Below the pieces are notes generated by a model, which saw only the letters and a program-made list of their open reading frames with translations, did not search any database and was not told where the DNA came from. DNA of 40,640 bases from a virus (Duplodnaviria; Heunggongvirae; Uroviricota; Caudoviricetes): the IMG/VR virus record IMGVR_UViG_2541047698_000019; one strand, given 5' to 3'. Made by a program: the position numbers and the translations under genes. The number at the start of each line of letters is the position of its first letter. The first letter of the stretch is position 1. Below, piece by piece: positions 6,305-40,264 of this stretch.

Positions 6305-6352
6305 TTTGCTGCTCCTCATCATATCGACCCTGCAAGGTCGGTTAGTTTCTCC

Positions 6353-6441
6353 ACAAAACAGAGAAGAACACCTGCGGTGGCAGCCGCCCGGATGGATTGG
6401 GTTATGAGCCCGTCGTCCGGTGATGCTCTTCTCTGTTTTGT
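6353..6441. repeat. long inverted repeat: 15-bp perfect arms ACAAAACAGAGAAGA / TCTTCTCTGTTTTGT separated by about 59 nt
   Basis: Read directly. Lies in the intergenic region between the minus-strand early genes and the plus-strand moron. Confidence 0.5.
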
Positions 6442-6583
6442 AAAAAGAGCGGTACCAGCCGGAAGCAAGGGTACAAACTGGTACCGCCAGGACTACACAC
6501 AGCAATGAAACTATTGCCTGTCTTTTCACCACTTCAGGCTCGGTGGTATGCTGGAGTTCTCACACAGCCAGCAAGGAAACCTA

Positions 6584-6925
6584 ATGAACCAGTTTTATGT
6601 TCATGTTCGTCTGTTTGAAGCAACAGCCGAACAGACCAAAAAATTTGAAGAATTAATGCTTAACTTTCTGTACCAGAAAACAATCAAAGAGTCTGACGAT
6701 AGCTGCTGCAGACTGATTCCAGAGGGATATATCCTCAAAAGCACAATGAACTGCCAACAAATCCTTGATCAAACTTTTTCCATTGCTAACAGTGCTGGTG
6801 TTGACGCAAATATATTTGTCTGCAAATTTGAACAAAGCGTATGCTTACTTCCGTCTGCTTCCTTAGTTGGCAACGATTTTGTTCATCACGATCTTACGCC
6901 TAAGCCCATCAAGCTCGATTCTTAA
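6584..6925 (+). CDS. hypothetical AT-rich moron protein, antisense to the early-left operon
   Basis: ORF track 6548-6925; preferred start is the ATG 36 nt in (MNQFYVH...) with AAGGAA RBS. Candidate promoter TTCACC-N16-TATGCT upstream. About 40 percent GC. The 3' end overlaps 6863-7171 (-) by 63 bp. Confidence 0.35.
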   Translation: MNQFYVHVRLFEATAEQTKKFEELMLNFLYQKTIKESDDSCCRLIPEGYILKSTMNCQQILDQTFSIANSAGVDANIFVCKFEQSVCLLPSASLVGNDFVHHDLTPKPIKLDS

Positions 6926-7171
6926 TGCCTTAACCATTGTGTCGTGATAAACACGGCTCACCCTCTCTCCATTGCATGGCAGTGGGGTGATCGTGTTAGC
7001 CATGAAATTCATGAACTTGGTTCGATCAGGGTCTTGCGCCTCGCAAGTCTTTAATGCCTGTTTTGCTAACAAAATACGGGCCTCAGTGCCTGCATTTGGC
7101 TCTATCTGCTGCAAACGTTTAGCGTCTTCCAGCAACAATGCGATCACATGCTTCAAATCCTGCTCATTCAT
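6863..7171 (-). CDS. hypothetical protein, first gene of the leftward early operon
   Basis: 102 aa with GGAGAG RBS upstream of the start. Located immediately left of the OL-like operator cluster. Confidence 0.5.
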   Translation of the reverse strand: MNEQDLKHVIALLLEDAKRLQQIEPNAGTEARILLAKQALKTCEAQDPDRTKFMNFMANTITPLPCNGERVSRVYHDTMVKALRIELDGLRRKIVMNKIVAN

Positions 7172-7260
7172 CTATTCTCTCCACTGAAATCATCCGCTAA
7201 CGAATCATCCTGGACTTCATATGCCCCAGGCGGCTACTTCGTGGGCGTCCTGCCTGTTCG

Positions 7261-7320
7261 TTACTGCAACATCTTTAAGTTGTAATCTAGTTGTTGTTTT
7301 GGTTGTTGTCAACAACTTTA
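7261..7320. promoter_or_regulatory. OL/PL-like operator-promoter region with repeated GTTGTTG / CAACAACTTTA motifs
   Basis: 15-bp perfect palindrome GTTGTTGTCAACAAC (7302-7316) plus additional AGTTGT/GTTGTTG repeats. The same motif family recurs at 8221-8310. Confidence 0.5.
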
Positions 7321-7506
7321 TGTGGTTTTGACGGATGTGAAATGAGGGCAAGGGTTATCAAAAAAGGAGGTTGTATGGACGATGCGCTTTTAATTACACA
7401 AGGGACACTTTCCTTCCGTGATTGGAAACTCTCAAATCACGGGAGGAAGATTGAAAAGGCGGGTAATAATGGTAACTAAATTTCTGAAGGAAGGTTTTTT
7501 GATGCA

Positions 7507-8193
7507 TTACCAAGTGCGCGATGACCAGAATACTCTACCTATAACGTGAATTCTGGAACGCCTATCTTCGAAGGTGAGTATTTCATCTGGATACTCATCT
7601 TTATTGAAACTTCTTAGAATCAGACCACCGTCAGGTAAATTGATCAATATTTTAACTCTAAGTAATACGCCATCACGTATGGCATAAAGATCCCCATCAC
7701 GAATAGGAACCGTTTGGGAAACATCAACAGCAACAAAATCTCCATTGTTAAGTACAGGTAGTAAACTATTGCCCCAAATTTTTACGATCTTTGCATTGGA
7801 GACACATACACCAGCTTTTCTTAAATCAATCCTTCTTAGCGGGAACCAGTCTACAGTTGATTCAACTATTTCAGCCAAACATCCATTACCCGCTGATAAC
7901 TCGACATCTAGGACTGGAATGTTTGCAAAAATGTCAGGATCTAATGCTGTACTTTCAGCCTCCTTTACAACAAGGTCTGGGAAAGACGCGTTATCCTCAA
8001 TGCCCAATTGCAACCACTTTTGAGAAACCCCTAACACTTTAGCAATCTCTTTAATTTTCCGAGGCTGTTGAGTTTCTCCATTCTCGATTTTCGCTACGGA
8101 TTGTTGTGAAAGCCCAATTTTTTCAGCTAGTTGCGCCTGACTCATTCCTGCTTTTTCTCTTTCGCTTTTTAGTCTTTCTGCCAATGTTTTCAC
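7507..8193 (-). CDS. CI-like phage repressor (XRE-family HTH plus S24 LexA-like peptidase domain)
   Basis: 228 aa. N-terminal HTH (MSQAQLAEKIGLSQQSVAKIENG). C-terminal autocleavage-domain features (AG cleavage-site motif, S...K spacing). Non-ATG (GTG) start with GAGGGGGA RBS. Confidence 0.85.
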   Translation of the reverse strand: MKTLAERLKSEREKAGMSQAQLAEKIGLSQQSVAKIENGETQQPRKIKEIAKVLGVSQKWLQLGIEDNASFPDLVVKEAESTALDPDIFANIPVLDVELSAGNGCLAEIVESTVDWFPLRRIDLRKAGVCVSNAKIVKIWGNSLLPVLNNGDFVAVDVSQTVPIRDGDLYAIRDGVLLRVKILINLPDGGLILRSFNKDEYPDEILTFEDRRSRIHVIGRVFWSSRTW

Positions 8194-8220
8194 AACATAT
8201 CCCCCTCGTTTTTATTGAGG

Positions 8221-8310
8221 TTACAACTTTATGTTTTGGCTTTCCAACATCTAAAAGTTGTGATAAAAGTTGTTGTAGTTGTATAATCGAAGTTATCAAC
8301 AACTTTACTA
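8221..8310. promoter_or_regulatory. OR/PR/PRM-like divergent operator-promoter region
   Basis: Three copies of the ACAACTTTA / AAAGTTGTTG motif. TATAAT at about 8282-8287 oriented toward the cro-like gene. Lies between the divergent repressor and cro-like genes. Confidence 0.5.
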
Positions 8311-8330
8311 CTTACAGATAGGAGAAAGCT

Positions 8331-8579
8331 ATGACACCTGAGCAATTAGCCTTATCAGAGGCAATCGCTCTGGCTGGTGGTCAATCAGAATTGGCTCGGA
8401 AGCTCACAGCCAGCAGTGGTCGTTTAGTAAAGCAACAACATGTCTGGAACTGGTTGAACAGAGAAAAGCGTCCCCCTGCAAAGCTCTCGATATTTATTGA
8501 AATGACCACTGGCGTATCAAAAGAAAAATTACGTCCAGATATTTTTCAAAAGATTAAAGACTTATCAGATGGAAAGTAA
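8331..8579 (+). CDS. Cro-like / YdaS-like HTH regulator
   Basis: 82 aa, divergent from the repressor, AGGAG RBS. Small HTH protein. Confidence 0.65.
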   Translation: MTPEQLALSEAIALAGGQSELARKLTASSGRLVKQQHVWNWLNREKRPPAKLSIFIEMTTGVSKEKLRPDIFQKIKDLSDGK

Positions 8580-9159
8580 CCACAGTTTTAAGGAGATAGC
8601 CGTGGGTAAGCATCACTGGAAAGTAGAAAAACAGCCTGAGTGGTACGTGAAAGCTGTCAGAAAAACTATCGCAACATTGCCGGGTGGTTACGCTGAAGCA
8701 GCTGACTGGCTGGATGTAACAGAGAACGCATTATTTAACCGCCTTCGTGCTGATGGCGATCAGATTTTCCCGCTGGGATGGGCAATGATTTTGCAACGTG
8801 CTGGTGGAACTCACTTCATTGCTGACGCTGTGGCGCAGTCTGCAAATGGCGTCTTTGTGTCTCTTCCTGACGTCGAGGATGTGGACAACGCCGATATAAA
8901 CCAGCGCCTGCTGGAAGTCATCGAACAGATCGGGAGTTACTCAAAGCAGATTCGTTCGGCAATCGAAGATGGGGTAGTGGAGCCACACGAGCAGACAGCA
9001 ATTAATGATGAGTTGTATCTGTCAATTTCGAAGCTCCAGGAGCATGCAGCACTGGTCTACAAAATCTTTTGCGCTCCAGAAAAGAGTAACGCCCGCGAGT
9101 GTGCAGCTCCGGGCGTCGTGGCGTCGATTGCTTCTGGTTGTGGAGAAACTAACGCATGA
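8569..9159 (+). CDS. CII-like regulatory protein (YdaT family)
   Basis: 196 aa, directly downstream of the cro-like gene in the classic Cro/CII position. Family assignment from memory. Confidence 0.5.
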
Positions 9160-9547
9160 ACAGTTTAACAACACACTACCGTCGCTCGCAACTGATTGCG
9201 CTTCCTGTACCGGGTGGAAAAGCGAAGGTGGAGTATTGCTATGCAGTGAATGTACCAGGTGACAGGGAAATTGTAACCCACAGATTTGCAGAGTGGGCTG
9301 TGGGTGATTTCAACCGGCAGAAGGAGACAGTCCTTTGCAACAAGTTAACCGCTGGTTCAAAGATCACTACGGAGTGCCCGTCAGAGTCATTCGTTGGGAA
9401 CCGGAAACACAACGGGTTATCTACCTCCGCGAAGGCTATGAGCATGAATGCTTCAGTCCGCTCGAACAGTTTCGTCGTAAATTCAGGGAAATAGAGGTCG
9501 GTCATGAGCCTGTTAATGACATCCCAGCCCATTGTGATAAATCGTGA
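9156..9547 (+). pseudogene. hypothetical gene apparently split by a frameshift (ORFs 9156-9494 and 9335-9547)
   Basis: First ORF starts with an ATGA overlap on the CII-like stop. Its second half is low-complexity, while the overlapping frame ([27 protein letters not shown]...) has no internal ATG and ends by overlapping the replication-gene start. Confidence 0.3.
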
Positions 9548-10496
9548 TCTTGCATGCCGTATTGGTCTGAATGAGGCAATTGTGTTGCAGCAGCTTCATT
9601 ACTGGCTGAATGAAACGAATTCAGGCACTGAGCATGGCGGAATTCGCTGGGTTTATAACACGACAGAACAGTGGCTGGAGCAGTTTCCGTTCTGGTCAGA
9701 GTCCACTCTGAAACGCACATTTGCAAGCCTGAAATCACTTGGGGTTTTGCGTCGCGAGCAACTCAATAAATCGAAGCGTGACATGACCAACTTCTACACG
9801 ATCAACTATGAAAGTGAGCTTTTAGAAGAGGTCAAAGTGAACGAATCCATCAGGTCAAAATGCACTTCTCCATTGGGTCAAAGTGACCTGATGGATGGGC
9901 GCAAAATGACACGATCCATAGGTTCAAAACGACACGCTGTCATCGGGTCAAAATGGCCCAATGATCTTACAGAGAATACAACAGAGATTACTACAGAGAA
10001 TAAAACATCTTCTCGTCCGGACGCTTCGCAACCGGACACGCAAACGGCCGAACAGGAGTTTTTAACTCGCCATCCTGATGCGGTTGTATTCAGTCCTAAA
10101 AAGCGCCAGTGGGGAACGCAGGATGATTTGACCTGTGCACAGTGGCTCTGGAAAAAAATCATCGCCCTGTACGAGCAGGCCGCCGAATGTGACGGCGAAG
10201 TGGTTCGTCCCAAAGAACCGAACTGGACAGCCTGGGCAAACGAAATTCGCCTGATGTGTGTACAGGATGGGCGTACTCACAAACAAATCTGCGAGATGTA
10301 CAGCCGCGTCAGCCGCGATCCGTTCTGGTGCCGTAACGTGCTCAGCCCGTCGAAGCTGCGGGAAAAATGGGATGAGCTTTCCCTGCGCTTATCGCCGTCC
10401 GTCAGCACGTACACCGAAAAACGCGAAGACCCGTACTTCAAAGCCAGTTACGACAACGTGGACTACAGCCAGATCCCGGCAGGATTCAGGGGGTGA
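9504..10496 (+). CDS. phage replication initiation / replisome-organiser protein (N-terminal wHTH, DnaT-like C-terminal region)
   Basis: 330 aa, GAGGT RBS. Position and domain architecture are typical of lambdoid O-like / primosomal proteins. Confidence 0.6.
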   Translation: MSLLMTSQPIVINRDLACRIGLNEAIVLQQLHYWLNETNSGTEHGGIRWVYNTTEQWLEQFPFWSESTLKRTFASLKSLGVLRREQLNKSKRDMTNFYTINYESELLEEVKVNESIRSKCTSPLGQSDLMDGRKMTRSIGSKRHAVIGSKWPNDLTENTTEITTENKTSSRPDASQPDTQTAEQEFLTRHPDAVVFSPKKRQWGTQDDLTCAQWLWKKIIALYEQAAECDGEVVRPKEPNWTAWANEIRLMCVQDGRTHKQICEMYSRVSRDPFWCRNVLSPSKLREKWDELSLRLSPSVSTYTEKREDPYFKASYDNVDYSQIPAGFRG

Positions 10497-10987
10497 TCAT
10501 GAGTCTTTTGAATGACGTTCAGAAATTCATTGAAGCCCATCCGGGGTGTACTTCCGGAGACATTGCGGATGCTTTTGCAGGTTACTCACGGCAGCGCGTT
10601 CTGCAGTCAGCAAGCAAGTTACGTCAGAGTGGGCGTGTGGCTCACCGTTGTGAAGGAGATACACGCAGACATTTCCCACGCCTTACTGAGAGAGCGCAGG
10701 AGCCGGAACCACAACCAGTTCGTGAAACCAGACCTGTGCGCAATTTCTATGTCGGCACTAACGATCCCCGGGTGATTTTGTGCCTGACCCGCCAGGCGGA
10801 AGAACTGGAGTCAAGGGGCTTATACCGTCGTGCTGCAACCGTGTGGATGGCGGCATTCCGTGAAAGCCACTCCCAGCCAGAACGAAACAATTTTCTGGCA
10901 CGTCGTGAGCGGTGCTTACGGAAAAGCAGCAAGCGCGCTGCATCGGGTGAAGAGTGGTATCTGTCAGGGAATTACGTGGGGGCTTAA
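10493..10987 (+). CDS. putative regulator with PerC-like C-terminal region
   Basis: 164 aa. C-terminal GLYRRAATVWMAAF...RRERC resembles the PerC-family signature (from memory). Confidence 0.4.
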   Translation: MIMSLLNDVQKFIEAHPGCTSGDIADAFAGYSRQRVLQSASKLRQSGRVAHRCEGDTRRHFPRLTERAQEPEPQPVRETRPVRNFYVGTNDPRVILCLTRQAEELESRGLYRRAATVWMAAFRESHSQPERNNFLARRERCLRKSSKRAASGEEWYLSGNYVGA

Positions 10988-11593
10988 TGAGTAATAAATA
11001 TTGCCGGGCGCTGGTGGAACTGCGGAACAAACCAGCCCATGAACTGAAGGAAGTGGGCGATCAGTGGCGCACGCCGGATAACATTTTCTGGGGAATTAAC
11101 ACCCTGTTTGGCCCGTTTGTCCTGGATCTGTTTACTGACGGTGATAACGCCAAATGTACCGCGTATTACACGGCGGAAGACAACGCGCTGGCGCATGACT
11201 GGTCAGAACGTCTTGCGGAGCTTAAAGGTGCTGCCTTTGGTAATCCCCCATACAGCCGCGCCAGTCAGCATGAGGGGCAATACATCACCGGCATGCGTTA
11301 CATCATGAAACATGCCTGCCACCAGCGAAGTGTGGTGGCCGGAAGATGCAGATCATATTGCTTTTATTCGCGGGCGTATTGGTTTTGAACTGCCTGCCTG
11401 GTTTATCCCGAAAGATGAGAAGCAGGTGCCGACAGGCGCTTTCTTCGCTGGTGCTATTGCTGTTTTCGACAAGACCTGGAAGGGACCGGCAATCAGCTAC
11501 ATCGGGCGCGATGAACTTGAGGCATGTGGTGAGGCGTTTCTGGCGCAGGTTCGCCAGCAGGCGGAAAAACTGGTCAGGGAGATGGCGGCATGA
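10987..11593 (+). pseudogene. phage Dam-type N6-adenine DNA methyltransferase, apparently frameshifted (ORFs 10954-11388 and 11312-11593)
   Basis: First ORF carries the NPPY catalytic motif. A second overlapping frame continues protein-like sequence (EVWWPEDADHIAFIRGRIGFELP...). ATG for MSNKY at 10987. Confidence 0.55.
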
Positions 11594-11916
11594 CGACGTT
11601 AACTCAATGCCAGCAGCAGGTGCTGGATATGCTGATTTCTTACCAGAAAGAACGTGGCTTCCCGCCAACCAATCAGGAGGTGGCAACCATGCTGGGATAC
11701 CGTTCAGTGAATGCAGCGGTGGAGCATCTTCGCGCACTGGAGAAAAAAGGCGTCATCACGATAAAGCGTGGCGTGGCCCGGGGGATAACGCTTCATACTG
11801 CGATGAAGGACGACGACAGCGAGGCGGTCGGGATTATCCGCTCACTGCTTGCCGGTGAGGAAAACGCCAGGCTGCGTGCAACCCACTGGTTACATGAGAG
11901 GAGCCTGAAAGTATGA
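11590..11916 (+). CDS. LexA N-terminal DNA-binding-domain-like protein (no peptidase domain)
   Basis: 108 aa. LTQCQQQVLDMLISYQKERGFPPTNQEVATMLGYRSVNAAVEHLRALEKKGVI matches the LexA winged-helix pattern. Confidence 0.5.
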   Translation: MTTLTQCQQQVLDMLISYQKERGFPPTNQEVATMLGYRSVNAAVEHLRALEKKGVITIKRGVARGITLHTAMKDDDSEAVGIIRSLLAGEENARLRATHWLHERSLKV

Positions 11917-12302
11917 AGCTGATCCTTCCTTTCCCGCCCAGTGTGAACACGTACTGGCGACACCCCAACAAAGGGGCATTTGCTGGTAAGAGCCTGATAA
12001 GCGAGGCGGGGCGAAAATTTCAGAGCGCGGCGTGCGCAGCAATAGTTGAGCAGTTACGTCGTCTGCCGAAACCAACGTCGGCACCTGCTTCAGTGGAGAT
12101 CGTGTTGTTTCCTCCGGATAACCGGATCCGCGATCTGGGCAACTATAACAAGGCGCTGTTTGACGCCCTGACCCACGCGGGTGTGTGGGAAGACGACAGA
12201 CAGGTGAAAAGAATGCTGGTGGAGTGGGGACCGGTTATCCCGAAAGGGAAGGTCGAGATCACTATCAGTAAGTATGAGAAACCGGCGGGTGCAGCCGCCT
12301 GA
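11913..12302 (+). CDS. rusA: RusA-family Holliday-junction resolvase
   Basis: 129 aa. MKLILPFPPSVNTYW N-terminus and conserved acidic residues typical of RusA. Confidence 0.8.
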   Translation: MKLILPFPPSVNTYWRHPNKGAFAGKSLISEAGRKFQSAACAAIVEQLRRLPKPTSAPASVEIVLFPPDNRIRDLGNYNKALFDALTHAGVWEDDRQVKRMLVEWGPVIPKGKVEITISKYEKPAGAAA

Positions 12303-35736: not shown

Positions 35737-36783
35737 TCATATTAAAGCTTTTCGTAAAAGTGTCTTGCCGATTAAAACACCTCTTCGCTCTACAAGCTTG
35801 TGCGCAAAATAACAAACTATAAATAACAATAATAATATTTGAATGTTACTATTGATGTATTTAATTCCGATTTTATTAACTACTAATAACAAAGAGTCCC
35901 AAATCCAGTTATGAAATAAGTACACAGCATAAGTCATTTCAGATAGCAAATTGCATGCTTTGGATTCAATGAATCTATCTTTAAATAACCACGAACAAAG
36001 AAAAATAACAGTTCCTGTGAATGCGTAGTTGTAGTGCCCCCAGAATGGGTTTATTTTTTCAATGAGAGATAAATGAAGATAGAACATAGTTACGATGGAT
36101 ATTAAAGCAACAATCCGATTAACTAACTTATGCTCTGTAAGGTACACTACTACACCTATAAACAAAAATGGCGTATACAAGGTGAAGTAAGCATTATGAA
36201 AATCCTTCGCTACAGGGAAAGGATTAATGGTGGATATAAATAATGATATAAAAAGTAGTAGAACTGTTAAAACGTTTCCTTTATTTATGAGTCCGACTTT
36301 TTTAACCAAACCCATAAACACATAGAACAGCATTTCTATTCTTAACGTCCATTCAACACCAGCCAATGAAAGAGGTGTGTTAAAGAAATCGCCTATAAGC
36401 AATAATCTAGGTATTATTATGCTCAGAGGTGGAATGTTTCCACCATTATAGTATTGGATCAACATTTCAGCTAAAACAGCAAAAATATAGAGTGGGTATA
36501 TTCTAAATATTCTTTTTAAATAAAATTCAAAAGTTGCTTCTTTTTGTAGTACGTGGGTGATGATGTACCCTGAAACAAGAAAGAAGATCACAACCCCCAT
36601 TGCACCACCGAAACTGGCATCTGCTAGTAATCCGTAAAAAAGCCTCAGTGTAACGTGGTTACTTGGATCGTTCGCCAACGAAGATAAATCTTTGTTGAAC
36701 TTATGACCTAACACCACAAGGGAGAACGCAATTACACGCATGTAATCTAAAAAAAGAATTCGACGATTGTTCATGATTTTCAT
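35737..36783 (-). CDS. acyltransferase family 3 membrane protein (O-antigen acetylase, Oac-like)
   Basis: 348 aa polytopic membrane protein with the family-typical N-terminal FLDYMRVIAFSLVVLGH region. Very AT-rich. Confidence 0.75.
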   Translation of the reverse strand: MKIMNNRRILFLDYMRVIAFSLVVLGHKFNKDLSSLANDPSNHVTLRLFYGLLADASFGGAMGVVIFFLVSGYIITHVLQKEATFEFYLKRIFRIYPLYIFAVLAEMLIQYYNGGNIPPLSIIIPRLLLIGDFFNTPLSLAGVEWTLRIEMLFYVFMGLVKKVGLINKGNVLTVLLLFISLFISTINPFPVAKDFHNAYFTLYTPFLFIGVVVYLTEHKLVNRIVALISIVTMFYLHLSLIEKINPFWGHYNYAFTGTVIFLCSWLFKDRFIESKACNLLSEMTYAVYLFHNWIWDSLLLVVNKIGIKYINSNIQILLLLFIVCYFAHKLVERRGVLIGKTLLRKALI

Positions 36784-37730: not shown

Positions 37731-37979
37731 TTAGTGAACAAACCACTCGTCAGCAGATTCCCAGGTATCTTTCAGAGTCTCCTGAACAAAAGTTTTTACA
37801 GAATCCTTATCTGCGGTGCGTGTAACAGAAAGGCCATCGTTGCTGGTGGCTTTTACGATCACCTCTACATCATCATAACGTTTACTGATGCGTCGGGTTA
37901 ATTCTTCCTTTAACGCGTCCACAGCACCGGTTGGCATTTTAGTCATTTTTTCTTTGGCTATGCAGATTTCAATACGCAT
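37731..37979 (-). CDS. DinI-like DNA-damage-inducible protein
   Basis: 82 aa. [10 protein letters not shown]...[17 protein letters not shown] parallels E. coli DinI (from memory). AGAGGGA RBS. Confidence 0.8.
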
Positions 37980-38040: not shown

Positions 38041-39138
38041 TCAAGAGGTCTTATTTCTGCTCCTTTGGAGCTCTTCAAAACGATTATGTAAAGATTTCGG
38101 ATACAGTTCGGTATATACCTGCCATAGCACGTTTAATGAACGATGCCCTGTAACTTGGGCGACTTCCTCAATACTAAAACCAGCCTCAAATAAGCGACTT
38201 GCCCCTTCTCTACGCAAATCATGGTATCGCAGATCTTTAATACCTAATTTGCTTCTTACCCTCTGAAATCCCGCAGTAACAGAAGTGCTGTTATATGGAA
38301 AAATGAATTCCGATTTTTGGGGCTGTCGTTGGACGATATCCCAGGCTTCCCCAAGCAAGGCTACTTTCATGTGGTTGCCTTCCTTTTTGCGTGGATCTTT
38401 CCTGTCTCTTACGAGTATAGATTTTTGTTCTTGGTCGAGATCTTCCCATCGTAACCGGCATACTTCTCCGATTCGCATACAGGACCACACAGAAAATTTG
38501 AGGATATCAACGAACGGAATTTTTGAGCATTTATGAGTAGATCGTTGTTGAAGGCCTTCAATGAGCATGTCCAGTTCATCAGATGCTGGTCTACGATTAC
38601 GACGGTTTGATTTACCAATCAAACCAAGTTTAAGTAGATATGGACGAGCGCTTTTCGCTGGGTTTGATGTGTAATTAATTCCGTATACAGGTTTGGCTGC
38701 ATCCAGAACACTGCCAAGATAACTAACATCGTGGCTGACTGTTGCTGGACCTGCACCAGCGTTGTTTCTTAGCCTGCAATGTTCAATTACGTCATTTTCG
38801 GTCAGTTCGGATAGTTTGATCGCGGAGATGTCACTATCCATAAGCAGTTCCAGCACATATCTTTTAGTACGGCCTGCTTTACCTCCGGCATTTGGGTCAT
38901 TTAAATATTTGTGTAGTAAGTCACGGACTGTAAGTCCGTCAACTGCATTTGATGATGGAATGCCATATAGATCTAATTCCATCACTTTCTGTGTACCCCA
39001 TGTTTTGGCATGGGCATGTTTAGGGAATGTTTTGCTTTCCCTGTAAGTGATAACACCTTTTTCTTTGATAATCACATTACAGCGATAGCGTGGTGTGCCA
39101 TCGGATTTTAGTCGTTTCTCTATGTTATAGTACGCCAT
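38041..39138 (-). CDS. tyrosine integrase (dusA-associated integrase type)
   Basis: 365 aa. C-terminal catalytic region with R...H-x-x-R...Y pattern (HDLRR, GHRS, Y near the C-terminus). Adjacent to and divergent from dusA. Confidence 0.9.
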   Translation of the reverse strand: MAYYNIEKRLKSDGTPRYRCNVIIKEKGVITYRESKTFPKHAHAKTWGTQKVMELDLYGIPSSNAVDGLTVRDLLHKYLNDPNAGGKAGRTKRYVLELLMDSDISAIKLSELTENDVIEHCRLRNNAGAGPATVSHDVSYLGSVLDAAKPVYGINYTSNPAKSARPYLLKLGLIGKSNRRNRRPASDELDMLIEGLQQRSTHKCSKIPFVDILKFSVWSCMRIGEVCRLRWEDLDQEQKSILVRDRKDPRKKEGNHMKVALLGEAWDIVQRQPQKSEFIFPYNSTSVTAGFQRVRSKLGIKDLRYHDLRREGASRLFEAGFSIEEVAQVTGHRSLNVLWQVYTELYPKSLHNRFEELQRSRNKTS

Positions 39139-39226: not shown

Positions 39227-39330
39227 ATGCACGATAATCCTGAAACACAGAAAACTAATCAAACCAGCGTGATGCCTGAAAAAACTGGCGCTTACTGGAG
39301 TTCCCGGTTTAGCATTGCTCCTATGCTCGA
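39227..39330 (+). repeat. phage-supplied replacement 5' end of dusA (direct-repeat copy at the right junction)
   Basis: About 80 percent identical to 1320-1423. Identity ends in a shared ATGCTCGA, after which this copy continues as dusA and the left copy as phage DNA. Confidence 0.7.
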
Positions 39331-40264
39331 CTGGACGGACAGACATTGCCGCTATTTCTTGCGTCTGCTTTCCCGCAATACGTTGCTGTATACCGAAATG
39401 GTGACTACAGGGGCGATTATTCACGGTAAAGGTGATTACCTGGCGTACAGTGAAGAAGAACATCCGGTAGCATTGCAACTGGGCGGTAGCGATCCGGCGG
39501 CGCTGGCGCAGTGTGCAAAGCTGGCAGAAGCGCGCGGATATGATGAGATCAACCTGAATGTCGGCTGCCCGTCTGACCGGGTGCAGAACGGCATGTTTGG
39601 GGCGTGTCTGATGGGTAATGCGCAGCTGGTTGCCGACTGCGTGAAAGCGATGCGCGATGTGGTGTCGATTCCGGTGACGGTGAAAACGCGTATTGGCATC
39701 GACGACCAGGACAGCTATGAATTTCTCTGCGATTTCATCAACACCGTTTCCGGCAAAGGCGAGTGTGAGATGTTCATCATCCACGCACGTAAAGCCTGGC
39801 TTTCGGGGTTAAGCCCGAAAGAAAACCGTGAAATCCCGCCGCTCGATTATCCGCGTGTGTATCAACTGAAGCGTGACTTTCCGCATCTGACAATGTCGAT
39901 TAACGGTGGCATCAAGTCGCTGGAAGAGGCTAAAGCGCATTTGCAACATATGGATGGCGTGATGGTCGGGCGCGAAGCGTATCAGAATCCGGGTATTCTG
40001 GCGGCGGTAGACCGAGAGATCTTTGGTTCCTCGGATACCGATGCCGATCCGGTGGCGGTAGTGCGCGCCATGTATCCGTACATTGAGCGTGAACTCAGCC
40101 AGGGGACGTATCTTGGCCATATTACCCGGCATATGCTGGGCTTGTTCCAGGGTATTCCTGGCGCGCGGCAGTGGCGGCGTTATTTAAGTGAAAATGCCCA
40201 TAAAGCGGGTGCAGACATTAATGTGCTGGAACACGCGCTCAAACTGGTGGCGGATAAGCGTTAA
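39227..40264 (+). CDS. dusA: tRNA-dihydrouridine(20/20a) synthase DusA
   Basis: 345 aa. TIM-barrel Dus-family signatures and near-identity to E. coli DusA outside the first about 35 residues. Confidence 0.95.

Follow-up and report, generated by a model that had tools for sequence, protein, structure and literature searches.

Two overlapping open reading frames in an Escherichia coli prophage both resemble phage Dam-type methyltransferases, and the question they raise is whether the locus holds one broken gene, two genes, or a product of assembly. We analyzed the window surrounding them, a 40,640-nucleotide stretch of viral DNA (IMG/VR record IMGVR_UViG_2541047698_000019). The two ORFs lie on the plus strand at 10954/10987-11388 (frame 0) and 11312-11593 (frame 1), with an overlap of 77 nt. 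A sequence-only reading had described them as a Dam-type methyltransferase split across two overlapping frames with the catalytic NPPY motif in its N-terminal part, a description that survives on every one of these points. The features of the locus are as follows.

10987..11388, plus strand: N-terminal fragment ORF of the methyltransferase pseudogene (from PF05869, TIGR01712 and identity to the intact gene)
11242..11253, plus strand: motif IV NPPY, encoded AAT CCC CCA TAC, residues 86-89 (read from the sequence)
11315..11317, plus strand: deletion junction, 47 bp absent (from alignment with intact genes and prefix/suffix computation)
11317..11593, plus strand: C-terminal remnant, codons 127-217 and stop (from PF05869, TIGR01712 and identity to the intact gene)

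Against the Pfam Dam family (PF05869), the N-terminal part covers profile positions 3-82 (E 1.1e-25, 90.7 bits) and the C-terminal part positions 97-167 (E 3.3e-10, 40.3 bits), both above the curated cut-off of 28.1 bits. The NCBIfam equivalog model for phage N-6-adenine-methyltransferase, TIGR01712, matches the N-terminal part over positions 1-85 at 129.6 bits, compared with a cut-off of 97.05, and the C-terminal part alone over positions 98-165 at 88.2 bits, which is under that cut-off. An intact homologue is matched end to end (positions 1-165) at 253.9 bits. Both ORFs are pieces of one PF05869/TIGR01712 phage N-6-adenine-methyltransferase gene, at a level far beyond chance. The form required of catalytic motif IV, (D/N)PP(Y/F/W), is present as NPPY, and it aligns with NPPYS in every homologue aligned. 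A functional member of these families is a single ORF spanning the whole profile; in the window the halves occupy different frames and TIGR01712 positions 86-97 are absent. The gap between the two pieces amounts to ~12-14 profile positions, and more than one base must therefore have been lost.

The ATG at 10987, which overlaps the stop codon of the upstream PerC/YfdN gene, is the annotated start in intact homologues. From this codon the N-terminal ORF encodes 110 authentic residues (nt 10987-11316), followed by 23 out-of-frame residues, CHQRSVVAGRCRSYCFYSRAYWF, up to a TGA stop at 11386-11388. The C-terminal remnant is in the +1 frame with respect to the N-terminal part. A chance ATG at 11312 opens its frame, and gene callers start it at GTG 11330.

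To define the lesion we used as reference the intact 654-bp gene of E. coli FDAARGOS_1295, which encodes a 217-aa protein (WP_001522181.1) annotated as “phage N-6-adenine-methyltransferase”, in place of the 133-aa truncated product of the window. The two DNA sequences are identical at every base except for one 47-bp gap at window position 11316, and the same 47-bp gap appears in alignment with the gene of E. coli STEC309. The frame change had previously been attributed to a single-base indel; alignment with intact homologues replaces that idea with a 47-bp deletion, a lesion of another size altogether. The sequence absent from the window is CAGTGCCATGCGTGATAAAGGCGGGCGCTATGTTTTCCTGATCAAAG, and the junction reads ...AAACATGCC|TGCCACC.... 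Lost with it are codons 111-125 and two bases of codon 126, corresponding to residues SAMRDKGGRYVFLIKA, and the frame is shifted. In the alignment of homologues, the deleted residues sit just after NPPY and make up a glycine-containing turn together with the helix end before it and the conserved hydrophobic strand after it. A search of the PDB by sequence found no relative.

The breakpoints themselves share very little. The prefix of 330 nt and the suffix of 278 nt held in common with the intact gene exceed the 607 nt of the window gene by 1 nt, which leaves a microhomology of a single base, the C at 11316. Direct-repeat slippage was rejected as the origin of the deletion on this ground, and a repeat search found no repeats that bracket it. 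Short TGCCA repeats do occur close to each breakpoint, but slippage from one to the other would remove 45 or 51 bp and keep the frame, not 47 bp. A hairpin-mediated deletion was also rejected, since the intact region, folded as a single strand, gains no stability over shuffled sequence (z = -0.43).

An indel is formally symmetrical, and this symmetry is all that speaks for reading the 47 bp as an insertion in other genomes and the window as the ancestral state. The homologues speak otherwise. We compared proteins from Salmonella phages ST64B and Chi, Xanthomonas phage XAP3, Aeromonas phage BUCT551, Vibrio phage K72 and orf32 of VT2-Sakai. These homologues, at ~25-70% identity, are all single ORFs that continue through the deleted segment, which aligns to a conserved pattern of G-x-x followed by a hydrophobic strand (YVFLIK, TIWLTK or VVMLVP). 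Because such distant homologues are continuous across it, the 47-bp segment is ancestral and belongs to the conserved core of the fold. Even those at 25-50% identity, from the Salmonella, Xanthomonas, Aeromonas and Vibrio phages and VT2-Sakai, encode the residues in frame, and the PF05869 and TIGR01712 profiles contain the deleted positions, so that an insertion elsewhere can be regarded as already refuted. The ST64B coding sequence in this comparison, sb44, is 894 bp long and reaches well past its methylase match.

The same comparisons bear on whether the two ORFs might together form a functional enzyme, either as two reassembling subunits or through a +1 ribosomal frameshift that joins them. 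Both fragments still score as family members, and the stop codon of the N-terminal frame occurs in the context TGG TTT TGA A, where tRNA-Phe could slip +1 into the C-terminal frame. Rescue by such a slip at TTT TGA was nevertheless rejected, since the product would retain the 23 nonsense residues and be short of 39 authentic ones; sixteen conserved core residues would be absent regardless of how the ORFs were expressed. Inspection of the sequence upstream of ATG 11312 and GTG 11330 revealed no evident Shine-Dalgarno sequence at either, and neither a conserved split nor a recoding signal nor a partner gene was found. The split is not conserved: near and distant homologues examined are all single ORFs, and the junction occurs in 0 of 5,426 complete E. 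coli genomes. The flanks are moreover 100% identical to the intact allele, which leaves no time for adaptation to a divided state. A split or recoded enzyme is, on this evidence, extremely improbable. The sequence-only reading had named two genuinely separate genes in homologues as the finding that would speak against it; instead the gene is continuous in ~1,718 E. coli genomes and 317 phage records, in keeping with a single ancestral gene that was interrupted in the window.

The reality of the deletion can be judged from its recurrence in other assemblies. The exact 133-aa truncated protein is deposited as GenBank EQN88353.1 (E. coli HVH 25). Three contigs, each from a different GenBank assembly, encode it; all carry the junction and all are 100% identical to the window in DNA, which places the origin of the window in this clone.

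GCA_000456365.1 (E. coli HVH 25): 729-kb contig, 100% identical over 20.4 kb
GCA_907175065.1: 48-kb contig, 100% identical over 12.0 kb
GCA_903974725.1: 5-kb contig, 100% identical over 5.1 kb

The lesion is thus reproduced in three assemblies with different contig structures, which may not be independent isolates: they are 100% identical over the shared stretch and could represent one strain sequenced again. The smallest contig, that of GCA_903974725.1 (window 6350-11406), stops only 90 bp past the junction, which suggests a second near-identical copy of the downstream region, possibly in another prophage with an intact methylase.

Such duplication speaks in favor of an artefact, in which the true genome would carry an intact 654-bp gene and the gap would have been made by the assembler. 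E. coli often has several near-identical copies of this gene, in up to 4 places per genome, which complicates short-read assembly, and one of the three contigs ends only 90 bp beyond the junction. Against this, the identical junction appears in three assemblies whose contig structures are quite different, and since the breakpoints have a single base pair in common, a collapse of k-mers or overlaps could not have joined them without spanning reads. The usual artefacts are also homopolymer indels, such as the change in an A-run of STEC309, and not losses of 47 bp. The recurrence of the junction and the near absence of shared sequence at the breakpoints make an assembly artefact very unlikely. 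The earlier choice between pseudogenisation and assembly error is accordingly settled in part: the first stands, while the second is countered by the three matching junctions and the 1-bp microhomology. We estimate a probability of about 0.93 that the locus is a real, lineage-specific pseudogene produced by one 47-bp deletion, neither a sequencing error nor a new kind of gene, as judged from the comparison of sequences. The deletion is recent, as the DNA on either side of it shows 100% identity with an intact allele.

To assess how widely the allele and its intact counterpart are distributed, we searched complete E. coli genomes with a 751-nt probe of the locus. Matches were found in 2,650 of the 5,426 genomes. 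Coverage of the probe reached 80% or more in 1,718 of these, which corresponds approximately to a gene of intact length. Among the matches listed, every full-length one consists of two pieces that together span 47 bases more than the query. A junction-only probe (22+22 nt), which cannot seed on intact genes, had no match in the same 5,426 genomes, and the exact 39-nt junction was absent from GTDB representative genomes, JGI metagenome contigs and IMG/VR. The deletion allele is rare and confined to one lineage. Within the phage collection, an unbroken match to at least 80% of the protein was obtained in 317 records, and phage copies of the intact protein are 98-99% identical to it.

The pseudogene resides within a complete-looking prophage of ~38 kb (window 958-39226), integrated at dusA and equipped with an SfV/SKA5-like head and contractile tail. 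In the late region it shares 97-98% identity with phage SKA5 and with the group of SfV, SfII, SfI and SfIV. The flanking and neighboring genes are listed below.

1-957: DUF2713 gene, on the flank opposite dusA
9504-10496: replication-region protein
10493..10987, plus strand: PerC-family (YfdN) gene (PF06069), with a TAA stop that overlaps the methyltransferase ATG by 1 nt
11590..11916, plus strand: 108-aa LexA DNA-binding-domain protein (PF01726, E 2.9e-19)
11913-12302: RusA
38041-39138, minus strand: tyrosine integrase, adjoining dusA
39227-40264: dusA, followed by pspG

The early-right genes are linked by overlaps of 1-4 nt and follow the order replication-region protein, PerC/YfdN, methylase pseudogene, LexA-like, RusA, KilA-N, DUF968 and Q. 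The intact gene of E. coli and Shigella SfV-type phages (“dam” of SfV, SfII, mEp460 and SKA5) occupies the same position as the pseudogene, and these prophages share the order PerC/YfdN, dam, LexA-like, RusA. The 108-aa LexA-like gene is conserved directly downstream of the methylase; its product contains the LexA DNA-binding domain only, with no S24 peptidase domain, and is variously annotated as “LexA repressor”. Two cargo genes lie on the minus strand between the tail-fibre assembly gene and the integrase: an acyltransferase of the Acyl_transf_3 family (35737-36783), which could be O-antigen-modifying and serotype-converting like those of Shigella phages, and a DinI-like protein (37731-37979).

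The methylase can be missing from this module altogether. CFT073 and many genomes like it have no methylase here, and the stop codon of yfdN directly overlaps the start of the LexA-like gene. Among complete E. coli genomes with the module, about one third are without a full-length copy. The methylase, at window 10985-11593, is an optional cassette whose boundaries coincide exactly with those of the ORFs. A remnant of the same gene, likewise adjoining yfdN, is found in K-12 as yfdM, within the cryptic prophage CPS-53/KpLE1. It has 96% identity over window 10901-~11253 and is cut just after NPPY. In K-12, everything downstream has been lost by a large prophage deletion and yfdM is fused to a tail-fibre (gp53-like) remnant, whereas the window allele has a small internal deletion within a prophage that otherwise looks complete; the gene was inactivated independently in K-12, and in a different way. 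Given the prophages of CFT073 type that do without it and the K-12 remnant, the gene is dispensable cargo. Host Dam may also make phage Dam redundant, if the phage enzyme also targets GATC. A separate change occurs in E. coli STEC309 and its sister STEC3xx/4xx strains, where 1 bp is lost from an A5 run near the 3' end of the methylase and the gene is marked “frameshifted” by PGAP. Several genomes show this loss, but they come from one laboratory, so that it may be either genuine or a sequencing error in a homopolymer.

Several prophage methyltransferases of E. coli invite comparison with this gene. Orf32 of VT2-Sakai, annotated “DNA methyltransferase”, likewise belongs to PF05869 (E 6.4e-65) and contains NPPYS. 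Its gene lies in the nin/early-right region of a lambdoid phage, and like the window gene it is an orphan, unaccompanied by a partner nuclease. It differs from the window gene in its low identity (30% over 144 aa) and its shorter length (175 aa). We take orf32 to be M.EcoVT2Dam, the Dam methylase of phage VT2 that Radlinska and Bujnicki cloned in 2001, with GATC presumably as its target. PMC6602927 places M.EcoVT2Dam among Dam homologues and cites its cloning to Radlinska and Bujnicki 2001. M.EcoGII and M.EcoGV resemble the window gene in being prophage-encoded orphan adenine methyltransferases of E. coli. M.EcoGII is a non-specific adenine methylase of the beta class with DPPY and FxGxG motifs, and neither it nor M.EcoGI is reported to be expressed during normal growth of strain C227-11 (PMC5778455). 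M.EcoGV/M.EcoPA8orf6770P is an MT-A70-type methyltransferase of Stx phages with a DPPW motif; it methylates 16S rRNA and is described as weakly expressed in STEC O104 (PMC10810198). Identity of the window gene with M.EcoGII or with M.EcoGV/M.EcoPA8orf6770P was rejected, as these belong to other families and have DPPY or DPPW where the window has NPPY. Annotation of the family is uneven: in RefSeq phage records NC_003444, NC_021857, NC_019716, NC_004313, NC_025442 and others, members of PF05869 are named “phosphoadenosine phosphosulfate reductase”, which looks like a propagated misannotation.

The course of events that we propose begins with a single 47-bp deletion, with 1 bp of microhomology, which struck a prophage orphan N-6-adenine DNA methyltransferase gene in the early-right operon, called “dam” in SfV/SfII-type phages and yfdM in K-12 nomenclature. 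This deletion removed core residues following NPPY and shifted the last 91 codons into another frame. The product predicted from ATG 10987 is 133 aa long; it retains NPPY, ends in 23 nonsense residues and is without the C-terminal 40% of the enzyme. From the frameshift and the lost core segment we infer that no active methyltransferase would be made from the window allele. The ATG of the LexA-like gene overlaps the methyltransferase TGA (ATGA) and is preceded by its own GGGAG Shine-Dalgarno sequence ~11 nt upstream; because this ribosome-binding site is retained, the premature stop at 11388 probably has little or no polar effect on that gene. The lesion is recent, limited to a single lineage, and tolerated since the gene is dispensable accessory cargo. 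That the loss is adaptive, for example by evading methylation-dependent restriction or defence or by altering induction, or that the 133-aa NPPY fragment acts as a regulatory or dominant-negative protein, seems highly improbable.

The locus is an ordinary one, a pseudogene of a very common and already annotated prophage gene. Gene calls on the three assemblies divide it into two Dam-family genes, one of 133 and one of 87 residues, and the correct annotation is one pseudogene, frameshifted by a 47-bp internal deletion. The junction could serve as a marker of the HVH 25-like clone. In predictions of the methylome or of restriction evasion for this prophage, the methyltransferase should be counted as inactive.
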